DNA of 64,000 nt from a virus (lineage: Duplodnaviria > Caudoviricetes): positions 55,987 to 119,986 of the IMG/VR virus record IMGVR_UViG_2585428004_000001. One strand, 5' to 3'. This document shows positions 61 through 55,977 of this stretch, piece after piece. The position numbers and the translations under genes are program-made. The first letter of the stretch is position 1, and every line of letters starts with the position of its first letter. The notes under the pieces are model-generated. The model was not told the DNA's origin, searched no databases, and worked only from the letters and a program-made list of their open reading frames with translations.

Positions 61-339
61 ATGGAGAATACGATGAAATTAATTAAATTTGAACAATCAG
101 ACTGCACACCTTGTAAGATGTTAAAAGAGTTTATGGAAGGATTAGGAGTTGAGGCTGACAAAGTAGTTAACCTTACAACTGCTACAGAAATGGAAGACTT
201 CATGTTGGCAAGTAAGCATGGTATTGAGAAGACTCCAGTTCTTCTAATTGAAGACGACAATGGTAAAGAGATTGCTCGCTATAAAGGTGTAGGTCAAACT
301 GGAGTTAAAGCAATCCTTGTTCAACGTGGCTTAATATAA
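61..339 (+). CDS. Thioredoxin/glutaredoxin-like redoxin (NrdH-like)
   Basis: CTPC motif and cis-Pro motif (KTPVL). The start may be the second Met at 73, after GGAGA. Confidence 0.85.
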   Translation: MENTMKLIKFEQSDCTPCKMLKEFMEGLGVEADKVVNLTTATEMEDFMLASKHGIEKTPVLLIEDDNGKEIARYKGVGQTGVKAILVQRGLI

Positions 340-406
340 AACAAAACCATTAAAATAGGGGAGCTTATCTCCCCTTGTACATAACAAACAAGGAGGATTA
401 CCAATC

Positions 407-971: not shown

Positions 972-998
972 AACATACAAATCAGGAGGCAATTTATT

Positions 999-2030
999 AT
1001 GACAAACAGAACAGTTAAGGTATTAGATTCAATTAAGGTAAAGTTATTCACTCACACAGATTTAGATGGTATTGGTTGTGAAGTAGTAGGTCGTTTAGCA
1101 TTTAAGCAAATTGATGTAGAGCATTGTGACTATCATAACGTAGATGACAAGGTTAAGAACTTCTTAACAACTGGTGAGCATAAACGTTACGATATGGTTA
1201 TTATCACTGATATCTCAGTTAAAGAGCCAGTTGCAGATATGATTCAATCTACAATTGCTGAGAAGGTTGTTCTTCTAGACCATCATGAGACAGCTAAATG
1301 GATGAATCACAAGTATGAGTGGGCTAACGTTAGAGTAGAGGGTCGTAAAGGCAAGGATTCTGGAACAAACCTATTATTCGAACATCTATCAATGCACTAT
1401 GGTATGTTCCGCAATGAGAAGTATTACGATGCTCTATCAATCTTCGTTGAAAAGGTTCGTAGATACGATTGTTGGGAATGGAAGACAGCCTACAATGACA
1501 CAGATGCATTGTTATTAAACAATCTGTTGTATCTAATTGGTAGAAAGTCATTTGCAAATAAGTTCTATAATAAGTTCATGTACTCATCTCGATTTGTTTA
1601 CATGAGTGGTGATTGGACTGAGATGTTCGATAGTGCTGATAAAGCTGTTCTTGAAGTGGATAGAGAGAAAGCTAAAGCATACTTCGATAAGAAAGAGAAG
1701 CAAATGTTTACTGCTAATCTATTAGGACATAAAGTAGGGGTAGTATTCGCAGAGCAATATATCTCTGAATTAGGCAACATCTTAAATGAGCGACATAAGG
1801 ACTTAGACCTTATTGCAATCGTTGATATGGGTAGTAAGAAGGTCTCTTACAGAACAATTCACGACCATGTAAATGTATCTGCACTAGCTAAGACATTTGG
1901 TGGAGGCGGTCATGTAAAAGCCTCTGGTAGCGAGTTTGAAGTATCTCTTCAGAAACATATGTTTAAGTTAATCTTCGGCATTGGAGCGCTTTCAAAAGTT
2001 CGAAAATTGGTTGACATGTTCACTAAATAA
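999..2030 (+). CDS. DHH/DHHA1 family phosphoesterase (NrnB/oligoribonuclease-like)
   Basis: Motifs HTDLDG, ITD, DHH and C-terminal GGGH; AGGAGG RBS. Confidence 0.9.
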   Translation: MTNRTVKVLDSIKVKLFTHTDLDGIGCEVVGRLAFKQIDVEHCDYHNVDDKVKNFLTTGEHKRYDMVIITDISVKEPVADMIQSTIAEKVVLLDHHETAKWMNHKYEWANVRVEGRKGKDSGTNLLFEHLSMHYGMFRNEKYYDALSIFVEKVRRYDCWEWKTAYNDTDALLLNNLLYLIGRKSFANKFYNKFMYSSRFVYMSGDWTEMFDSADKAVLEVDREKAKAYFDKKEKQMFTANLLGHKVGVVFAEQYISELGNILNERHKDLDLIAIVDMGSKKVSYRTIHDHVNVSALAKTFGGGGHVKASGSEFEVSLQKHMFKLIFGIGALSKVRKLVDMFTK

Positions 2031-13256: not shown

Positions 13257-15335
13257 CTAAATTCTATCAAAATTTACATTAAAACTTTCCAATGCTTTTC
13301 CTTGTACGGCTTTAGAGTTATCGAAGATAGCCTCTGCATTTAATGCCGTTGTACCTCTATGGTCGTATCCTGCGATAGAACCAGTATCAATCTCGTCTCC
13401 AGTAAGATTTAATCTAATGGACTTTACGTAGTTGACTGCATTGGCTGTAAAATCATTTATGAACGCATCATAAGTTGTGAACGCTGTGTTAGCAATGATA
13501 GCATCTTTCACTGCCTCTCCTCCACTCTTAGTAGAGGATTTAATAGAGTTCATTACAGACTTCATATCTTTCCCATCAACAATCTTCTTATCAAGGTACT
13601 TCATGATAACATATCCTGCACTGTAACTATCACTAGTATCTTCCCAATAATTATCTTTTAGCATTCTTGTTGCAAGGCTAATGAGATTGTTTAACTTTGT
13701 ATTGTTGATTACTCCATTGTCTACTATAGAAAACTTTAATCGTTCATCAGCACCATGAAGTAATTCTGCACTACCCTCTGTAAACCAAGTAGGCATAAGT
13801 CTTGTCTTCTCTACCCCAAACACATCGTTCATAAGTAAATGGACTACTTCGTGACCTAAGATGCGGTCGCTGTACTCTTCTTTTCCTGCTCCAGTATTAC
13901 CATTGTCGTCCCCATTTGATTTAAAGTCTGCTAGGTCAATGGTTAACACCTGTCTCTTAGTTCCCATATATCCTGCAACATAGGCTGTTACTCCATGCTT
14001 TTCTCCATTTTCGAATCTAACAGTTACATCTGCACCAGAACCAACTAAGCCATAGTAGTTCTTTATGCGTTGCTCAGATAGCGACAGCCATCCTTTATTC
14101 ATAATCCCATCTTCTACTATAGTAGCAATCTCTCTTGCCTCTGTAAGTGAACTGTCCACTTCAATAGTGTCATAGTACATCTTATGAGCATTAATGGTCA
14201 TATTATCCTTAACTCCTAGACCTGTAGAGATAGAATCTATAATGTATCGTTCTACCTTTTTGGAAACGAAGTTATAAACTTCTATAATGTCATTTCCATC
14301 TAGGAAGTAAACTGGAACAGAAGTGATAGCTAACTGCTCTTGGAAATTGCTTGCTTTAAACAACTCATATCTGGCACTAGATTCACATTGAGAAAGAGTA
14401 GTTAACTTTGTATCTACAACAACTTTCTTTCTAACCTTAATCTTTGACTCATGGAATGGAGAGTCTTCTTTTGCTAGACTAACCTCTGCTTTTGGAGTAA
14501 GACCTGTTTTGTCATCCATTCTACCAATAACAACTACCTTATTCTTAACATTCTTATAAGTGTAGTTCTCACCAAAGGTAGTGATGTGATTTGATTCACC
14601 ATTAAATACCCAAGAAACAGGTTCTCCATCTTCTCTCTGTATTTGCATCTTTCTGAATACGAAAGTGCCATCTACATCGTAGTATGCTTCCCAATCCATA
14701 TACAAATCTCTTAGAGTCTCGATTATATCTAAGACAGTGTCTCCTTCATTAAACTCTAGCTTATATGGAACTGTTAGTGTAGTGAACTGTATGTCTGCCT
14801 TCCATTCCCCATACAGATGTAAGATTTCTGTTATAGCTGTATGGATTGGCGTATCTGCATCAATTACAATCTTATTCTCTAATTGCTCCATTTCCCATCT
14901 CATCATATTATCCTGTAGTGCAATGGTTGTAGTACGATTCTCTGGGGATATATCTACACTAGGTTCAGTAATATAGAATGTTCCCAAACAGAAGTGTGTT
15001 ATCGTTCCATCTGATGATGTTAAGTCTTCAATCCCTGCATACACTCTAATTCTATTGGTCATCCATAGTAGGCTTCCCTCTGTTGGTCTCAAAGAATCAA
15101 GTAGCACAAAGGACAGATTGCCTGTCCTTCTGATTAAGCTACTATTTGAGATACTTATATCTCCACCTGTAGAGAGACCTTGAATGGTTTCAATAGTATT
15201 CATTTCTTCATCTAATACCTCTACAGTGATATACAGCTTTCTAATTGACTGAAGATGGAGGTCTGCGTAGTTAGCGATGTTTGGTATATTCTTACCAGAC
15301 ATAACGATGTTACCTTTAATATAATTATCAGCCAC
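13257..15335 (-). CDS. Tail hub-type protein with C-terminal gluzincin metallopeptidase domain (flagellinolysin-like)
   Basis: N-terminal phage tail hub-like region; C-terminal HEVVH..PTWFTEGSAELLHGADER. Confidence 0.75.
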   Translation of the reverse strand: MADNYIKGNIVMSGKNIPNIANYADLHLQSIRKLYITVEVLDEEMNTIETIQGLSTGGDISISNSSLIRRTGNLSFVLLDSLRPTEGSLLWMTNRIRVYAGIEDLTSSDGTITHFCLGTFYITEPSVDISPENRTTTIALQDNMMRWEMEQLENKIVIDADTPIHTAITEILHLYGEWKADIQFTTLTVPYKLEFNEGDTVLDIIETLRDLYMDWEAYYDVDGTFVFRKMQIQREDGEPVSWVFNGESNHITTFGENYTYKNVKNKVVVIGRMDDKTGLTPKAEVSLAKEDSPFHESKIKVRKKVVVDTKLTTLSQCESSARYELFKASNFQEQLAITSVPVYFLDGNDIIEVYNFVSKKVERYIIDSISTGLGVKDNMTINAHKMYYDTIEVDSSLTEAREIATIVEDGIMNKGWLSLSEQRIKNYYGLVGSGADVTVRFENGEKHGVTAYVAGYMGTKRQVLTIDLADFKSNGDDNGNTGAGKEEYSDRILGHEVVHLLMNDVFGVEKTRLMPTWFTEGSAELLHGADERLKFSIVDNGVINNTKLNNLISLATRMLKDNYWEDTSDSYSAGYVIMKYLDKKIVDGKDMKSVMNSIKSSTKSGGEAVKDAIIANTAFTTYDAFINDFTANAVNYVKSIRLNLTGDEIDTGSIAGYDHRGTTALNAEAIFDNSKAVQGKALESFNVNFDRI

Positions 15336-24908: not shown

Positions 24909-24941
24909 TTAATCTAACACCTCTCTTTGCAATGGTTTTGT

Positions 24942-25985
24942 TTAACCTTCTTTGTTTTGATTCTTTTTCTCTCTAAGCTTCTTCATCTTCTCACGAATTT
25001 CAGCTTTAGATTTAGGCTTAACATAGTGTTTCTGAGTAGTAGAAACATCACTGTGATTCAAGAACTCTTGAGCCATTGTTAAATCACCAGTTTCTTCAAC
25101 AATAAGATTACCTTTTGTTTTTCGTAAACAGTGAGGATGTAAATCTGTTAATCCCAGAATTGTACCCATCTTTCTTACTCGCATATAGATTGAAGTCTGA
25201 GACATCTTTCTATACTCTCCATTGTATTTAATGACGAAGAAAGCATCACACTCAAGGTTATCCATGCTCTTGCGCATCTCTAACCACTGCTCAATCAGTT
25301 TCTTTGTGCCTTCCTCAAAGGTAACCTCTACTCGTTTACCACGTTTCTCACGGATGTCTACAAACATCATTTCCTCTAAGTCTAGGGAAGATATAGTTAA
25401 CTTAGAAATTGCTCCATTTCTATTTGCTGATTCAATAGCGATATTCCAAATCAATAGGTCTTGGAAGTCAAACTTTCTACCCTTTGGTTTCTGAATATCT
25501 TCTACAAGAACCTTGGAGATAACATCAACTTGCTCTTGGGTTAAGAAATAGTGGTTAATAAGGCGCTCGTCATTAGCACCCTTCATTCTATCTAGTTTCT
25601 TGTCAAAAGGATGAATGTCAATAATTCCCCTCTTAACTGCCCATACATAGTATGTAGAAACAGCAGAAAGCTTTGTGTTAATAACCTTCTTGTTATTTCC
25701 AAGCGTATCTTGACAGAATCCAATGAACCCTTCCATGATATCTACGCCATTCTCCATTAACTCATCGTCATGAATGAAGATGTTCTCCCATTCTTCTTCT
25801 AAGTAAACAAGAAATTGATTAAAGTAGTTTTGATACACTTTGTACGTTGTATCTTTTACATCTTTATTTTTAATGATGTTCGACTTCAGATACTTGTCGT
25901 AAGCCTTTATATTCTTAGGGTTAATTCTAGCTTTCTTTTCTTTTGTAAAATATCGCTTATAAACCCTCTTTAGTTGTTCTGCCAC
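24942..25985 (-). CDS. Tyrosine recombinase/integrase family protein
   Basis: Catalytic R (ANR), K, HxxR (HPHCLR), H (LNH), Y (KHY). Confidence 0.9.
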   Translation of the reverse strand: MAEQLKRVYKRYFTKEKKARINPKNIKAYDKYLKSNIIKNKDVKDTTYKVYQNYFNQFLVYLEEEWENIFIHDDELMENGVDIMEGFIGFCQDTLGNNKKVINTKLSAVSTYYVWAVKRGIIDIHPFDKKLDRMKGANDERLINHYFLTQEQVDVISKVLVEDIQKPKGRKFDFQDLLIWNIAIESANRNGAISKLTISSLDLEEMMFVDIREKRGKRVEVTFEEGTKKLIEQWLEMRKSMDNLECDAFFVIKYNGEYRKMSQTSIYMRVRKMGTILGLTDLHPHCLRKTKGNLIVEETGDLTMAQEFLNHSDVSTTQKHYVKPKSKAEIREKMKKLREKKNQNKEG

Positions 25986-36407: not shown

Positions 36408-36484
36408 CTTATAGATGCACCTCTTCTTGTATTATTTTGCAATGGTTTTGTTTAACATTGCATTTGTGATTAAAGGGATTACCT

Positions 36485-47802: not shown

Positions 47803-48117
47803 ATATTCTTGCCCTCTCTCTCAAAGTTGGGTGCGAACTACAGTGCGTTAGGCTGTGTGAAGTTATAAAAACTTCACAACAAGGCAAAAAGGATTTTGCG
47901 AGATAACGAGTGCAACTAAAATAAATAACACTAACACAAAGGAGGCAATGGTGATGTGTCTTCACACACCCTGCCGCACTGTAGCAAGCTGTCATGTCTT
48001 GGTGTCCTTGGACAATCCAAGATTGGTCACTTTTGACCTGTCATTAATGGCTTCTTGAGCCAATCTTCATTCATATTAAATTGTCAAATTCTCGGAGGGC
48101 AGGTAAGCCCATAATAG

Positions 48118-48204
48118 TGGTGGGAAAGGCAGGATTTGAACCTGCAATGTCTCTTACGTCACGGTTTTACAGACCGCTTGCTTCACCAATTTGCATACTC
48201 GCCC
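48118..48204 (-). tRNA. tRNA-Tyr(GTA)
   Basis: Cloverleaf with long variable arm, loop CT-GTA-AA, encoded CCA. Confidence 0.9.
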
Positions 48205-48207
48205 ATG

Positions 48208-48321
48208 TGGCGGTAACAAACAAGAAAAGGAATCTTCTTGTGGGATATCTTCTGTGTCAGACCATTCTTTTCCACTACTACGAATTAGCAGTGCCTTCAC
48301 AGCAAGGCTCATCTAGTTACC
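48208..48321 (-). ncRNA. CCA-ended structured RNA with tRNA-like acceptor stem and non-tRNA interior
   Basis: GGTAAC/GTTACC-G-CCA closing stem, two 5' hairpins and a long stem. Confidence 0.45.
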
Positions 48322-48367
48322 TTTTGATGAGGTAGTAAACTGTCAAATCGAATTACACTAAGGTAAA

Positions 48368-48439
48368 AGGGGTATAAGGGAATCGAACCCTTGTCATCTG
48401 GTTGGAAGCCAGAGATAATAACCTCTATACGAATATCCC
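48368..48439 (-). tRNA. tRNA-Gly(TCC)
   Basis: TCTGG-CTTCCAA-CCAGA anticodon arm, TTCGATT T-loop, no encoded CCA. Confidence 0.8.
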
Positions 48440-48506
48440 GTGGAGGGAGTGACCTACTCCCAAAATCAACGTATTAAAAATAAAAAGATAGTTGGAGACT
48501 ATCAAA

Positions 48507-48578
48507 GGCGGGTGGCAGGATTCGAACCTGCGTTGCCTGCATCCCAAATGCAGTGACTGACCTCTAGCCTACACCCAC
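48507..48578 (-). tRNA. tRNA-Pro(TGG)
   Basis: CTGCA-TTTGGGA-TGCAG anticodon arm, TTCGAAT T-loop. Confidence 0.8.
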
Positions 48579-48679
48579 ATAAAGAGGCGAGCGTTATTCA
48601 ACATTCCCCTCAGACATGTCATTTGAAAATGTGCAATTAAGCACTGGCGACATTGGCGTTAGCCTATGTGCCTTAGATA

Positions 48680-48767
48680 AGGAAAAGACAGGACTCGAAC
48701 CTGCGCCACTAATAATAGTGCTAACTGTTTAGCAAACAGTCCTCTTAACCAACTTGAGTACCTTTCC
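48680..48767 (-). tRNA. tRNA-Ser(GCT)
   Basis: ACTGT-TTGCTAA-ACAGT anticodon arm, long variable arm. Confidence 0.85.
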
Positions 48768-48772
48768 ATAAG

Positions 48773-48848
48773 CTTCGGTGGAAGGGGTCGACCCCTTCCA
48801 CGCTCTAGGGTCAAAGCCTAGCGACTTTACCAATTTGTCTACACCGAA
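48773..48848 (-). tRNA. tRNA-Gln(TTG), atypical T-loop
   Basis: CTAGG-CTTTGAC-CCTAG anticodon arm; T-loop GTCGACC instead of TTCGA. Confidence 0.75.
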
Positions 48849-48854
48849 ATAATG

Positions 48855-48944
48855 TGGCAGAGGGTGTGGGATTCGAACCCACGCAGGCTTTTACACCCCT
48901 GCTAGTTTTCAAGACTAGTCTCTTAACCGCTTGAGTAACCCTCT
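48855..48944 (-). tRNA. tRNA-Ser(TGA)
   Basis: Canonical cloverleaf with long variable arm and CCA. Confidence 0.92.
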
Positions 48945-48983
48945 ATAAAAGCCCTATTGCTAGGGCTTGTCTAATTAAAATTA

Positions 48984-49100
48984 TTAATCACAGCTGCCAA
49001 AGCTACCAGAGTCACATGAACCAGAATCGCTTCCAGTATCATAGATGATAATTGGTGATGGTGATGGTGAACTTGGTCGTGGTCTACGTTTTGTTGTCAT
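48984..49100 (-). CDS. 38-aa Ser/Pro/Gly/Cys-rich peptide (MTTKRRPRPSSPSPSPIIIYDTGSDSGSCDSGSFGSCD)
   Basis: Read manually; AGGAGG RBS; followed by a terminator hairpin at 48948-48968. Confidence 0.65.
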   Translation of the reverse strand: MTTKRRPRPSSPSPSPIIIYDTGSDSGSCDSGSFGSCD

Positions 49101-49113
49101 AGTAGATATCCTC

Positions 49114-49458
49114 CTAGTTCTGAATCTTATCAGTTAATTGGTCGATACTAGCAAAGATTGTATCAGCTTGTTTCAATGCATTTACTACTTGACCTTGATT
49201 ATTATTAATTTGTTGTACCAAATTTTGGAATTGCATAGCAATCATTGGAACTTCTTGCTGTAACATAGAAGCCATTTGAGTAAGTTGACTCTCAATGTAA
49301 TCCAATTGTTGAACTGCCATATTAGCGTTTTGAATAGTTAATCTACCAGAATTCACCTGTGCATCAATCTGGTCTGCTACTCGTGCGCTCTTCATTCCTG
49401 TACCAAACATACCTAATCCATTACTTCCAAACATAGTTATTTCCTCTCTCTCACTCAT
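49114..49458 (-). CDS. Hypothetical Gln-rich helical protein
   Basis: ORF; the start is probably the second Met after GAGAGGA. Confidence 0.7.
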   Translation of the reverse strand: MSEREEITMFGSNGLGMFGTGMKSARVADQIDAQVNSGRLTIQNANMAVQQLDYIESQLTQMASMLQQEVPMIAMQFQNLVQQINNNQGQVVNALKQADTIFASIDQLTDKIQN

Positions 49459-49464
49459 ATAGTT

Positions 49465-49740
49465 TTATTTTAAGAACTCATTAATTTTGTTTTTAAATGA
49501 TACTGCTTGTGATTTCTTAGCTTCTGCTTCACGAATCACATTTTCTAATTCAGCGATTTTTGCTTGTGCTTCCTCGATAACTGCATCAACTTTCTTTTCA
49601 GACAGTTCAGCTTCTTCTAAAGCAGTAGCAAATGATGATTGTGCTGAGTCAATCCATTTTTGTGCTTTAGCAATTTCTTTCGAATGTGCTTTAGCATACT
49701 TTCCTAATAATGCCATCAAAATTGTTTTTAAGTAATTCAC
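49465..49740 (-). CDS. Hypothetical coiled-coil protein
   Basis: 91-aa ORF with GGGG RBS. Confidence 0.75.
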   Translation of the reverse strand: MNYLKTILMALLGKYAKAHSKEIAKAQKWIDSAQSSFATALEEAELSEKKVDAVIEEAQAKIAELENVIREAEAKKSQAVSFKNKINEFLK

Positions 49741-49771
49741 TTAATTCCCCACTCTCTCAGTAAAATTTATA

Positions 49772-49847
49772 TGGCGAGGCTGATGGGATTCGAACCCACG
49801 ACCTTCTGCGTGACAGGCAGACGAACACTCCGCTGTTCTACAGCCCC
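49772..49847 (-). tRNA. tRNA-Asp(GTC)
   Basis: Canonical 76-nt cloverleaf with CCA. Confidence 0.93.
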
Positions 49848-49958
49848 ATGATTAAAAGGCTCAGAGTGTCGTAGGCTCTGAGCCAAGGAGGTAGGAGGTA
49901 TTTCATTAACTATGAAAAAAATAATGTGTGATAAATTTGGTGGGCAATGCCCATAATA

Positions 49959-50061
49959 TGGAGTTCTGTAGGTGGGAGTCGAACCCACATGATAAATACT
50001 TGACCCTTTCTATCCCTTTGGGATTACTCGAACCTTTCAATATCGCTGACCTTCACAGAAC
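49959..50061 (-). ncRNA. tRNA-like RNA with acceptor stem, T-arm and CCA but no canonical D or anticodon arm
   Basis: GTTCTGTG/TACAGAAC-T-CCA and GTGGG-TTCGACT-CCCAC. Confidence 0.6.
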
Positions 50062-50065
50062 ATAA

Positions 50066-50142
50066 TGGCGTTCCAAGTAGGACTTGAACCTACGACCTTT
50101 CGCTTAACAGGCGACTGCTCTAACCAACTGAGCTACAGGAAC
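50066..50142 (-). tRNA. tRNA-Asn(GTT)
   Basis: Canonical cloverleaf with CCA. Confidence 0.92.
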
Positions 50143-50306
50143 AGTAGTTGAAGATGTTGGCGCATCTTCACACTTTCACTTGAAAAGGAGGATTTGCAAA
50201 GGGTTGCCGTTACCCTCTGCGCACACTTCCTATTCATCTACATCCGTCAATGTAGATATAAGGTAAATCAACGAACAATATATTTTGTTAGGAGGAACAA
50301 TAATAT

Positions 50307-50375
50307 TGGGCTGTGCTTGGATTTGAACCAAGATAAGGGATGCCTCCCTTGCATTTTACTTATGCTACACGAACC
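50307..50375 (-). tRNA. Aberrant tRNA (anticodon arm AAGGG-AGGCAT-CCCTT, 6-nt loop; possibly Cys-derived)
   Basis: D-arm GCAT/ATGC, T-arm CTTGG-TTCAAAT-CCAAG, bulged acceptor stem. Confidence 0.5.
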
Positions 50376-50440
50376 ATGTTAAAGGAGAGTTATGCGCTAC
50401 ACATAACTCTCTAAAAGAATAAGTCTAACTAAAAGTTAAA

Positions 50441-50725
50441 TTAGAATTTACGAATTGTTTTTGATAAAGTTGCTGTTGCTTTACGGTGTGCAGGAACTTC
50501 AACTGGTTCACCAGTCTTAGGATTCTTCGCTGTGCGAGCTTCAACTTCTTTAGTTGTGAAATCTACGAAGCCTTTAAGTTTAACATCTTCGCCTGCTTTT
50601 AAAGCATTAACTACTACAGTTTCTAAAGCGTCAACGTGTGCTTTAACTACTTTTTGAGAAGCCTCAATTTCGTGTGTTTCCTTAAGTTCTGCTTGTACTG
50701 CAACTACTACATCTTGTTTTAACAT
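50441..50725 (-). CDS. HU-family DNA-binding protein
   Basis: GEDVKLKGF..ARTAKNPKTGE motif; start at MLKQ. Confidence 0.92.
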   Translation of the reverse strand: MLKQDVVVAVQAELKETHEIEASQKVVKAHVDALETVVVNALKAGEDVKLKGFVDFTTKEVEARTAKNPKTGEPVEVPAHRKATATLSKTIRKF

Positions 50726-50800
50726 AATATCTTTTTCCCTCTTTCTCACTCACATTTAATAAAATGTTTGTTTTAATAATTTTAATGTTTTTGTTTTAGC

Positions 50801-50899
50801 GCTCGAAGGTAGGAATCGAACCCACATCTGTTCGTCTCAAACGACTTATATAATTACCAGTTCACTACTGGTCGCTTTCCCAATTAAGCTACTTCGAAC
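50801..50899 (-). tRNA. tRNA-His(GTG)-like with enlarged variable region
   Basis: 8-bp acceptor stem (G-1 like), ACCAG-TAGTGAA-CTGGT anticodon arm (A33), ~30-nt extra arm, T-arm TTCGATT. Confidence 0.55.
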
Positions 50900-51097
50900 A
50901 TGAAAAAACTAAGCTACCGTTGATAGCTTAGTTTGACTGTGTGATTGGGGAATATAATAAATTGACTAAGGAGGCAATTATTATGACTTGTAGGTAGTTT
51001 TGCAATGGTTTTGTTTAACCCCTACAATATATATAGCAGTAACTGCCTCGATAGTTGCACTTTTTTATTAATTTTTTTAAAAAGTTTTTTCGATGGT

Positions 51098-52132
51098 CTA
51101 TAAACCCTTGTTTTTCTCTACGTAATGCTTAGACACCTTTTTGCCAATTCTTTTAATGATACGAGTCATCTTGTACTGTGGAATATCATATTCCTTAACA
51201 ATGCGCTCTCTAGTATAGCCCTTTAAGAACAGGTTTAAAACCATTGATTCCTCTTCATTTAGCGTGTCGATATCAACAAGTACCTTATCTAATTCTTCTA
51301 TTAAAAGACCAATATCAGATGTCATGTCTACCTTTTCATAATGAGAAATCAATGCTCCAACAACCTTTTCATCATCTAGTTCAATGGAGTTAGTTAAGGC
51401 TCTACCTTGGCTACTGCCAGTATTTCTGAATCTGATTGGCTTCTTGATAGCTTCTTTAATTAAGACTTGATTGTCAGCCATATCTTTAATCCATCTATTA
51501 ACATAGATATCTACGTTTCTTCTAATCTTCTTCAAAGCTTCTCTGTCTTTTTCATCTACTATATTAGGAAGCATTTTGTCGATGCGTTCTGCTAGTCTCT
51601 TTTTATATGAATCCTGTTTCATCATATCAATACTGTCTTGCAGATTAGCAATTTCCTTAATCTCTCTAATGTCTTTAGCATAAAGCTTTTGGCTATCATC
51701 CATTCTGTAGTTCTGGTCGTTTGGGGAGAAGAACATATCTATTACCTCTACTCCCTCTTCCATACCTGCTTGCAGTGTAGATGTATTGATGTTTTGTGAT
51801 TCTTTATAGTTGTTAAACTCTCGTTGAGACTTCCAGAATCGATATACAATTTTACGACTTGATTCAATATCCTTTGCATTCAGTAAGTATGTACCAAGTA
51901 ATTCTAATGTTTTACATACAGCATCCTGCTCTGCCATCCATCCTTTTTGAGTTGGACTAGCATCATAGTATTCTGCAAAGTAAGTAGTTATGAAATCATG
52001 CAGACTACCATCCTCATTATTTAGTAATCCAGTAACCAGTTCTAATCTATCATCAAACTTTGTAATAGAAGCATCGTACTTCTGAAAGTCCACCAGCTTC
52101 TTTCCTTCTATTTCACTTGTAAAGTATTTCAC
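51098..52132 (-). CDS. Protein with C-terminal sigma region 4-like HTH (candidate transcription regulator)
   Basis: LNEEESMVLNLFLKGYTRERIVKEY pattern. Confidence 0.55.
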   Translation of the reverse strand: MKYFTSEIEGKKLVDFQKYDASITKFDDRLELVTGLLNNEDGSLHDFITTYFAEYYDASPTQKGWMAEQDAVCKTLELLGTYLLNAKDIESSRKIVYRFWKSQREFNNYKESQNINTSTLQAGMEEGVEVIDMFFSPNDQNYRMDDSQKLYAKDIREIKEIANLQDSIDMMKQDSYKKRLAERIDKMLPNIVDEKDREALKKIRRNVDIYVNRWIKDMADNQVLIKEAIKKPIRFRNTGSSQGRALTNSIELDDEKVVGALISHYEKVDMTSDIGLLIEELDKVLVDIDTLNEEESMVLNLFLKGYTRERIVKEYDIPQYKMTRIIKRIGKKVSKHYVEKNKGL

Positions 52133-52323
52133 GTTAATGCAACTCCTTTTCTCTTTTTACCTTTGCCTCGTTTGCCTTTTGGTTTATCTGGGACACTGCC
52201 TGTTCTTTCGAAGTCATCATACATTGCATCTAACTTGCCACTTAGATACAATTCATTCATTTCATCATTGCTGTAGTGTCCTAACTCTCTTTCAAATGGT
52301 GTGTAACTGCCCATACCTTTCAT
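52129..52323 (-). CDS. Small hypothetical protein
   Basis: GAGGA RBS; promoter TTGCAA-17-TATAAT upstream. Confidence 0.7.
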   Translation of the reverse strand: MKGMGSYTPFERELGHYSNDEMNELYLSGKLDAMYDDFERTGSVPDKPKGKRGKGKKRKGVALT

Positions 52324-52443
52324 AGTTGCCTATCCTCTTTCTGTGTTTAGTGTTTGTGTTTTGAAATCATTATATCAACAAAACCATTAAATTGCAATGG
52401 TTTTGTTTAATAGAAGAATTAAAGAACCGTATGTAAAGGCTCT

Positions 52444-55665: not shown

Positions 55666-55977
55666 GATTCTCTCGTAACGGATATTAATCTCACTTTCAA
55701 AAATCACTACCAAAATTTACAGAGAGGTCAATCTCTAAAAATACCCCTCTCGACTCCATACAAGCCCATAGAGAGGTTCTATCTGGATGCTAGACTAATT
55801 ATATCTGTAAAAGAACCGTCTCTGAGAAAGCTTGTACGTCCTCCAGAAGTGATACACCCCACTCCCCTACTATTATATGTAGAATTAGAACGTTTTATAC
55901 ATTATTAAACAAAACCATTGACATCTTAATGGTTTTGTTTTACGATTGTGTCAACGAGGAAATAGGAGGTTTTACCA

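Follow-up and report, generated by a model that had tools for sequence, protein, structure and literature searches.

A conserved unit at the head of a phage tRNA array: a probable new anti-Shine-Dalgarno small RNA or leader

Does the region ahead of the transfer RNA (tRNA) array of a tailed phage encode a small RNA directed against translation initiation regions and, in particular, against that of the phage's own DHH phosphoesterase gene? This question is raised by a 64,000-nucleotide (nt) stretch of the IMG/VR record IMGVR_UViG_2585428004_000001, referred to here in its full length as the window, which corresponds to positions 12262-76261 of the phage contig C4 (G000:C4:12262-76261; C4 has 120,096 bp and 36.5% G+C). 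The contig is located in the assembly of a 5.6-Mb bacterium with 35.5% G+C. On the minus strand of the window, between a sigma-like gene and a tRNA-like element, there is a single-copy unit of about 121 nt (51023..50903), which contains a box complementary to a Shine-Dalgarno (SD) sequence, its spacer and a start codon. The unit is a probable new anti-Shine-Dalgarno small RNA or leader. With a probability of roughly 0.4, it would be a conserved non-coding RNA that pairs its C-rich loop (and here also the 5' arm of its second stem-loop, SL2) with translation initiation regions, the DHH gene being the best phage candidate. Specific silencing of the DHH gene is a possible, lineage-specific hypothesis.

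The plus-strand positions 50969-50987 read AGGAGGCAATTATTATGAC and the plus-strand positions 984-1003 read AGGAGGCAATTTATTATGAC, which means that both stretches are identical in 19 of 20 positions, with one extra T as the sole difference. The ATG at 999 opens an open reading frame (ORF) of 343 amino acids (999-2030) that codes for a DHH phosphoesterase (Pfam PF01368, E 2.8e-08; phrog_4771). The sequence, the Pfam match and an accessibility-corrected ranking point to 984..1003 (plus strand), that is, the SD sequence, spacer and start codon of this gene, as the proposed target. Its putative partner is the minus-strand anti-SD/anti-AUG box GUCAUAAUAAUUGCCUCCU (50969..50987), the complement of the plus-strand 19-mer, which is conserved in relatives. 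The initial annotation had described this match with its one bulge, the short peptide MTCR* that results from the plus-strand ATG at 50983 (followed by ACT TGT AGG TAG), and a terminator-like hairpin with a U run at the end of the minus-strand RNA; the letters of the window bear out all three, the last one as a hairpin followed by a T run. Its characterization of the DHH gene as early, on the other hand, is unsupported.

Relatives of the locus were found via the sigma-like protein, resulting in seven loci from five lineages, the window included as one. Across the unit-bearing loci, the sigma-like proteins have 46-76% identity to that of the window: (i) L005, which is the genome G071 (136.6 kb; 72%); (ii) L014, a metagenome contig (137 kb; 76%); (iii) L015, the same as L018, a metagenome / viral contig (11 kb; 55%); (iv) L016, a metagenome contig (54.7 kb; 48%); (v) L019, which is the genome G072 (126 kb; 47%); and (vi) L020, which is the genome G073 (127 kb; 46%). 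The whole-genome relatives are three only, namely G071, G072 and G073.

In all seven loci the unit keeps the same order: promoter box, first stem-loop (SL1), a spacer of variable length, anti-SD box, C-rich linker, terminator, and junction. The promoter-like box P1 (51030..51038, minus strand), an extended -10 with the form TG-C-TATATA, is recognized by its conservation, and an RNA start is predicted near A 51023. Upstream of P1 lies GTGCAAC (51060..51054), with an A-rich tract before it and about 19 nt after it, and the whole promoter string (A-rich, GTGCAAC, about 19 nt, TGCTATATATA(T/G)TGTA(A/G)G) is present in all the loci. The stretch CTGCTATATATA(T/G)TGTA(A/G)G, unique in C4, is kept in seven of seven loci despite diverged flanks, as is the extended -10 box TGCTATATA. 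A consensus promoter scan omits P1, because its -35 is weak, and lists instead another promoter, P2. From the conserved letters, we infer promoter function for P1, and the upstream start (P1, about 51023) is favoured since P1 and SL1 are kept in all loci.

SL1 (50990..51023, minus strand) has a common shape in the five lineages, with compensatory pairs: its outer stems vary yet pair (GGGGUU/AACCUU, AAGGGUU/AACCCUU, GCCAC/GUGGU, GGGU/ACCC), while its loop contains one copy of a phage-wide repeat, GTTAAACAAAACCATTGCAAA (51019..50999). SL2 (50954..50984, minus strand), with the stem AUAAUAAUUG / CAAUUUAUUAU and the loop CCUCCUUAGU, is predicted by folding (z -2.3). L016 and L019 have a hairpin AAUGAUU / AAUCGUU whose loop contains GCCU or GCCUCCUA, and in L005 the word GCCUCCUU stands just 3' of a hairpin, not in its loop; in general terms, SL1 and SL2 fold alike across the five lineages, and the C-rich word is left unpaired, either within a loop or in a single-stranded stretch. 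The linker before the terminator carries a second C-rich word, UCCCC (50947..50951, minus strand), identified from the sequence: UUCCCC occurs in the linker of three lineages (window, L015, L016) and CUUCCC in L005/L014, and the word is absent from L019/L020. Next comes the intrinsic-terminator-like hairpin with its U run (50903..50934, minus strand; hairpin 50934..50906, 13 pairs, loop of 3), found at the matching place in all relatives with different stem letters, and after it the junction (T/C)ATG and the tRNA-like element. RNAalifold on a MAFFT alignment keeps SL1 and the terminator and gives 14 consensus pairs, six of them with compensatory changes, in an alignment where the L005/L014 box is misaligned, the variable RNA middle is imperfect and the pair counts exclude SL2. 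As for the box, the relatives share the consensus (T)CATAATGATTGCCTCCT, and its CCUCC is mostly found within the loop of a hairpin; four of five lineages retain CCUC(C), and four of five retain CAU. Judging from its occurrence in these loci, the box is ancestral to the lineages; since the box is shared and the fit to DHH is not, this fit, if functional, would have arisen in the lineage of the window alone.

To look for further copies, a covariance model (R1) was derived from the seven sequences. It gives them, by construction, 96-115 bits, with one strong copy per genome; no further copy was found below E 0.095 in 362 kb, nor any in the host genome (best E 0.53). Rfam 15 gave no family up to E 1 over 50903-51023 and, in the relatives, only a sub-threshold match of L019 to RF02278. 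Likewise, megablast and blastn of 50400-51500, 700-1500 and 50400-52200 against a phage collection gave no DNA match, 70 genomes of the host's genus, searched at the DNA level, had none either, and the sigma-like protein was found in none of 103 other scored genomes of the host's family and in none of the genome contig collection. When promoter box and repeat together were used as a search pattern, there were 8 matches in Pedobacter and other genomes, which were set aside as chance, as well as the contigs L021 and L025, which were set aside on reading as small unrelated viral sequences. In these two contigs (L021 74-100 and L025 4447-4473), CTATATATAGTGTAAGGGGTTAACAAAA comes near the promoter box and the start of the repeat, and is followed by coding sequence. 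In run X10, a contig of 102,957 nt spans 50444-51179 with 81 differing letters and 33 gaps; the contigs of runs X2 and X3 are identical to the window where they overlap it, none of them covering 50951-51159, and X4 covers parts.

How might such an RNA act? The promoter with the extended -10 would give rise to a minus-strand RNA some 120 nt long, with its ends near 51023 and 50903, consisting of SL1, SL2, the UCCCC linker and the intrinsic terminator. The loop of SL2 would display CCUCCU(U), which we take to be the word found at the 3' end of the 16S ribosomal RNA. This C-rich loop would first touch a GGAGG ribosome-binding site in trans; the pairing would then extend along the 5' arm of SL2 across the spacer and the AUG, ousting the RNA's own 3' arm. 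As a result, 30S binding would be blocked, and the duplex could become accessible to RNase III. Among the messenger RNAs (mRNAs) of the phage, that of DHH would pair best (19 pairs, with a single bulge) and that of a gene of 178 amino acids second best, and this in the present lineage only. Over 11 nt, extra U included, DHH mRNA 990-1000 has the same letters as the 3' arm of SL2 (50964..50954, CAAUUUAUUAU), so that the mRNA could replace the arm, which fits strand displacement; by taking its place, the mRNA may gain six loop pairs. The analysis shows how the sequence is laid out and conserved, which structures it folds into and how its targets rank; transcription of the unit, its RNA ends, its action in trans and any effect on DHH are what we infer from the DNA sequence.

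To what extent does the fit to DHH exceed chance? The start regions used for this purpose come from a simple ORF-plus-SD script, with a few spurious ORFs (e.g., 50194-50382). Terminal overlap aside, the DHH start region is alone among 148 start regions of C4 in having a copy of itself, at one edit or less, elsewhere in the contig. When spacers were permuted with the SD hexamer and the start codon held fixed, any start region came within one edit in 6 of 2000 trials (0.003), and mock boxes consisting of natural host 19-mers of the form AGGAGG-N8-ATG-N2 lay within one edit of a phage start region in 2 of 202 cases. The 5.6-Mb assembly contains 5117 GGAGG sites, of which none but that of DHH is within one edit; a single host site is found at 2 edits, and 25 are found at 3. 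Compared with the start regions of two related phages, the box of the window finds a best match at 2 edits (G071, n=180) and at 3 edits, respectively; as related phages reach 2-3 edits, the excess over the natural background is of about one edit. If the 24 tested CCUCC sites are counted as trials, the corrected P is about 0.07. The DHH match is unusual, not overwhelming.

Pairing energies give a similar picture of the phage partners. By raw RNAduplex energy, DHH ranks third among the 148 phage start regions. Because raw RNAduplex on the whole RNA favours odd duplexes with long loops, an accessibility correction (opening energies of both partners) was added, and it places DHH first of 148 at -20.8 kcal/mol, the 178-amino-acid gene second at -18.0 and the third region at -12.9. 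In the assembly-wide ranking of 5439 start regions (139 from the phage), in which the correction was applied to the 400 best only, DHH ranks second and the 178-amino-acid gene fourth; by the box region alone, they are fourth and fifth of 5439. The expectation of the initial annotation that the DHH initiation region would stand near the top of the predicted targets agrees with these corrected ranks, in the phage set and among the 400 re-scored regions. The second gene lies outside the window, at window coordinates 84147-84683 (C4 96408-96944). Its start region, GGAGGCAAAATTATTATGACAAAC, is near-identical to that of DHH, first three codons included (ATGACAAAC), and its ortholog in G071 has a similar start region. 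Start regions of the DHH type recur in these phages, which lowers the surprise of the fit.

The box is also one of many C-rich words in this part of the genome. On the sense strand of the tRNA region (47900-51100, minus strand, plus the syntenic parts of the relatives), CCTCC is enriched 6-10 times in six of six loci, with observed and expected counts of 8 and 1.3 in the window, 8 and 0.9 in L005, 7 and 1.3 in L014, 11 and 1.1 in L016, 8 and 1.5 in L019, and 8 and 1.1 in L015; the null consisted of 1000 first-order Markov simulations, none of which reached the observed count at any locus. GGAGG appears only 1-2 times per locus on the same strand. Some of the CCTCC words are tRNA 3' ends or lie within hairpin arms, and several are free-standing words after which come a hairpin, a U run and a tRNA. 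The most evident of these free words is the conserved CCUCCUACCUCCU before tRNA-Asp, in a second conserved spacer unit (49898..49850) where it is followed by a G+C-rich hairpin, a U run, AUG and then tRNA-Asp. In the host, the tRNA-tRNA spacers contain no CCTCC in 1391 nt, and all CCTCC words near tRNAs are inside neighbouring tRNAs. The enrichment in the tRNA spacers supports selection for anti-SD words in these tRNA-region transcripts generally. It also bears on a weaker match that the initial annotation had linked to a second gene: the 12-mer AAAGGAGGATTT does have exact copies at 702-713 and 50184-50195, but it is mostly SD consensus and belongs to the many CCUCC words of the tRNA spacers, and so the match at 50184 is part of the general pattern, not a specific pair. 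A broader proposal is that the tRNA array doubles as an array of anti-SD small RNAs: CCUCCU words, each followed by a stabilizing hairpin, would lie in the spacers next to the promoter and between the tRNAs, and these RNAs would be freed by RNase P cutting or by termination, would bind GGAGG ribosome sites and would reshape translation during infection; the unit studied here would then have gained its 19-pair fit to DHH and a weaker fit to the 178-amino-acid gene, giving gene-specific silencing. We consider this rather unlikely.

A number of results weigh against an RNA that acts in trans on DHH. Extended complementarity to the DHH start region is absent in three of three whole-genome relatives: G071 has the start region AGGAGGAAATGAAATG (AGGAGGAAATGAAATGTT) and its own box has the complement AGGAGGCATTCAATTATGA; G072 has AGGAGGAAATATAATG (AGGAGGAAATATAATGTC) and AGGAGGCAATCATTAATTG; and in G073 both start region and box are the same as in G072. 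The co-variation suggested in the initial annotation is hence not there, as the DHH start regions of these three genomes do not track their own boxes. Raw duplex energy puts DHH 117th of 180 in G071 and 107th of 179 in G072; the corrected ranks are 75th of 180 and 25th of 179, and the box region alone gives 125th of 180 in G071; no start region of these two genomes is closer than 3 edits to the genome's own box. A conserved-target screen over 77 ortholog triplets revealed no significant shared target, the best shared candidate being the tail gene 13257-15335 (ranks 8, 9 and 1; product-of-ranks P about 0.08 after correction). Within the assembly of the window, three host start regions equal or beat DHH, and with the whole RNA and raw energy DHH falls to 28th of 5439. 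The features of the RNA itself are not uniform either: the SL1 of the window is weak (z-score -0.18), L016 is without CCUCC (it has GCCU only) and L019/L020 are without CAU. Besides, the alternative consensus sigma-A promoter P2 (50977..51005, minus strand; TTGCAA, 17 nt, AATAAT; 9 of 12 matches in the consensus scan) has its predicted RNA start at about 50970, inside CCUCC, and an RNA begun there would lose the anti-spacer/anti-AUG part. Finally, the RNA stands directly upstream of co-oriented genes with no consensus promoter listed between them, for which reason the unit may simply be their leader. From the silencing pair of small RNA and target put forward in the initial annotation, what persists is a layout that looks like that of a discrete RNA and the top rank of DHH in the phage; the lack of co-variation, the host regions that score as well and the trimming that P2 would bring tell against the rest.

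According to the leader explanation, which we regard as quite possible, if short of probable, the unit is a cis leader or a processing spacer of an operon in which the tRNA-like element is joined by the HU gene and the tRNA array; the fit to DHH would be mere chance, an AT-rich hairpin arm that carries a CCUCC word happening to resemble the complement of one among 148 start regions. The stem-loops and the terminator would govern read-through by attenuation or by put-like processive antitermination, or they would stabilize a spacer that RNase P cuts free. Only 4 nt separate the end of the terminator from the tRNA-like element, the consensus scan lists no promoter from there to the HU gene, and a terminator placed between a putative promoter and co-oriented genes without a listed promoter of their own matches the arrangement expected of an attenuator or antitermination leader. 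The same series of CCUCC word, hairpin and U run, too tight to hold a promoter, stands ahead of other tRNAs of the array, for instance tRNA-Asp (49898..49850) and tRNA-Asn (50191..50143), two cases that are conserved in relatives; since no promoter fits in, those hairpins would be read through or serve processing. A leader is equally in line with the fact that the DHH complementarity is not conserved and that none of the other CCUCC sites is complementary to a start region over an extended length (in that test, one antisense ORF call in G071 matched its own site). However, it leaves unexplained the layout of CAU, 8-9 nt and CCUCC in four of five lineages, the strong CCUCC enrichment, and the P of 0.003-0.01 for the DHH fit. 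Simple masking in cis of the SD sequence of the HU gene by the box was tried and is unsupported, the HU start region being a poor partner (80th of 148). In any case, the leader and the trans roles are compatible with each other.

A different explanation operates at the level of DNA: the ATTATT half of the match would be a sigma-A -10, the TTGCAA of the repeat its -35 and about 50970 the start, so that the match would have no RNA meaning. P2 is what the consensus scan lists, in at least 12 further repeat copies TTGCAA, or a close variant of it, is separated by 17 nt from TAnAAT, and L015, the only locus to do so, keeps the spacing, with AATGAT; in the other loci, the distance between motif and box ranges from 14 to 40 nt. 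We still find this unlikely. In L016, L005/L014 and L019/L020, 21-40 nt separate the box from the repeat; it is unusable there as a -10 and yet conserved, and this variable distance argues that the box is not conserved as the -10 of the repeat; moreover, the upstream extended -10 is kept in seven of seven loci, and SL1, located upstream of a start at about 50970, has compensatory changes. As to the possibility that the plus-strand SD sequence and ATG are a real mini-ORF start or the relic of a lost gene, an SD sequence, 8 nt and an ATG do occur on the plus strand in the window, L005/L014 and L015, and in L016 with a weak SD. Nevertheless, the ATGs yield MTCR*, MIE* or unrelated frames of greater length, L019/L020 have no ATG, no conserved plus-strand promoter was found and the block 7684-53830 is coded entirely on the minus strand; the mini-ORF was rejected and we hold it to be most implausible. 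The RNA reading with which we began, that of a conserved C-rich loop that would pair with initiation regions, is the one that these comparisons leave as the preferred one.

The repeat in the loop of SL1 belongs to a phage-wide family whose core, AAACAAAACCATT, has 58 copies at one mismatch or less in C4, compared with 0.6 expected. Of these, 55 are intergenic and 55 are on the strand of the nearest gene, most of them 15-100 nt before the start codon; examples in the window are 336-356(+), 24946..24926(-), 36456..36436(-), 52411..52391(-) and 55904-55924(+). Some copies provide a -35, TTGCAA, with TAnAAT placed 17 nt further on, and others abut the SD sequence; those at 52411 and 55904 are trailed by their own inverted copy, in an operator-like manner. 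The family is reminiscent of the mycobacteriophage stoperators (PMC9283540). The relative in run X10 also has the repeat at several places.

Regarding the genomic setting, the first and last 141 nt of C4 are identical, from which it follows that the phage genome is circular or terminally redundant and was assembled apart from the chromosome. C4 carries phage genes, among them tail genes, a sigma-like gene and an HU gene. Along the minus strand, the locus is arranged in the order: sigma-like gene, A-rich tract, small-RNA unit, tRNA-like element, HU gene and eight tRNA genes. The upstream neighbour, the sigma-factor-like gene (51098..52132, minus strand), matches phrog_5767 'sigma factor' (E 5.8e-28); its protein has no Pfam match and has 24-31% identity to Staphylococcus siphophage proteins in the phage collection, some of them annotated as 'sigma factor'. 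The next downstream gene codes for an HU-type DNA-binding protein (50441..50725, minus strand; Pfam PF00216, E 6.3e-20; phrog_379), and the eight tRNA genes occupy 50142..48118 (minus strand).

The tRNA-like element (50801..50898, minus strand) begins 4 nt past the U run. Membership of the tRNA family (RF00005) is judged by a covariance score above 29 bits plus a canonical anticodon loop; the element scores 41 bits in Rfam tRNA, yet it is not called by ARAGORN, and it has the anticodon loop UAGUGAA (GUG, with A at position 33), a variable arm of 27 nt and a G at -1 opposite C73. Degenerate, shorter tRNA-like elements are present at the same site in relatives (29.5 bits in L005, 43.7 bits in L015), and the Rfam covariance search called none in L016 and L019. 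The element may be a processing signal for RNase P/Z. In the relative of run X10, about 22 nt are missing inside it. Further along the minus strand, the string TAAAACAAACATTTTATTAAATGTGAG(A/T)GAGAAAGGGAG before the HU gene (50727-50800) is kept in all lineages; it may act as a translational operator or as a promoter used by the phage sigma-like factor. At 50300-50400 (minus strand) there is a decayed tRNA-like remnant, GGTTCAAATCCAAGCACAGCCCA, and beside it an AU-rich hairpin (50310..50276, minus strand) with CCUCCU in its loop and a build like that of SL2.

Several known systems share one or another trait with this unit. In T4, the tRNA cluster contains species 1 and 2 (bands C and D), stable non-tRNA small RNAs that are released with the tRNAs; we know of no function for them and of no description of an anti-SD box in them, and the likeness lies in their position in a phage tRNA cluster. 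The E. coli 3'ETS-leuZ is a tRNA-precursor spacer that has a base-pairing role after processing, as a sponge of small RNAs; it is likened here by position, and differs in that it is not directed to start regions, is encoded outside phages and lacks its own promoter. In Staphylococcus, the hairpins of RNAIII and the UCCC motifs of the RsaE type are C-rich words that pair with G-rich SD sequences and block initiation; the long duplexes of these RNAs with C-rich loops are RNase III substrates, and the RNAs are chromosomal, not phage-borne. No sequence relation to them was found in Rfam, and in the unit described here the complement reaches over the spacer and the AUG. The put RNA of HK022 consists of two stem-loops just downstream of a phage promoter, which cause antitermination in cis at later terminators; it has no anti-SD feature, and its likeness, by description, bears only on the leader alternative. 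Lastly, the toxic small RNAs of Betaproteobacteria (RF02278) are double-hairpin, CU-rich RNAs of Burkholderia whose predicted interactions centre on start regions (PMC5688073). The positions 4179-4237 of L019 are a weak match to this family (23.8 bits, E 0.78), below the gathering score of 50, and neither the window nor L005, L015 or L016 has a match, so that the unit does not fall within RF02278. The latter differs in host clade (here, a phage of a low-GC Gram-positive), size and layout, and the present unit is located in a phage tRNA array.

To our knowledge, hardly any work exists on the regulatory RNAs of phages of Gram-positive bacteria, and a literature search at the level of titles and abstracts did not find an anti-SD RNA in a phage tRNA cluster. 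Should the unit be a leader and nothing more, its conserved structure would still mark a new cis-regulatory element, one that precedes an HU gene and a tRNA array. If the proposed pairing is true, the phage would control its own gene by means of an antisense RNA against a ribosome-binding site, and the non-tRNA parts of phage tRNA arrays would gain a function.

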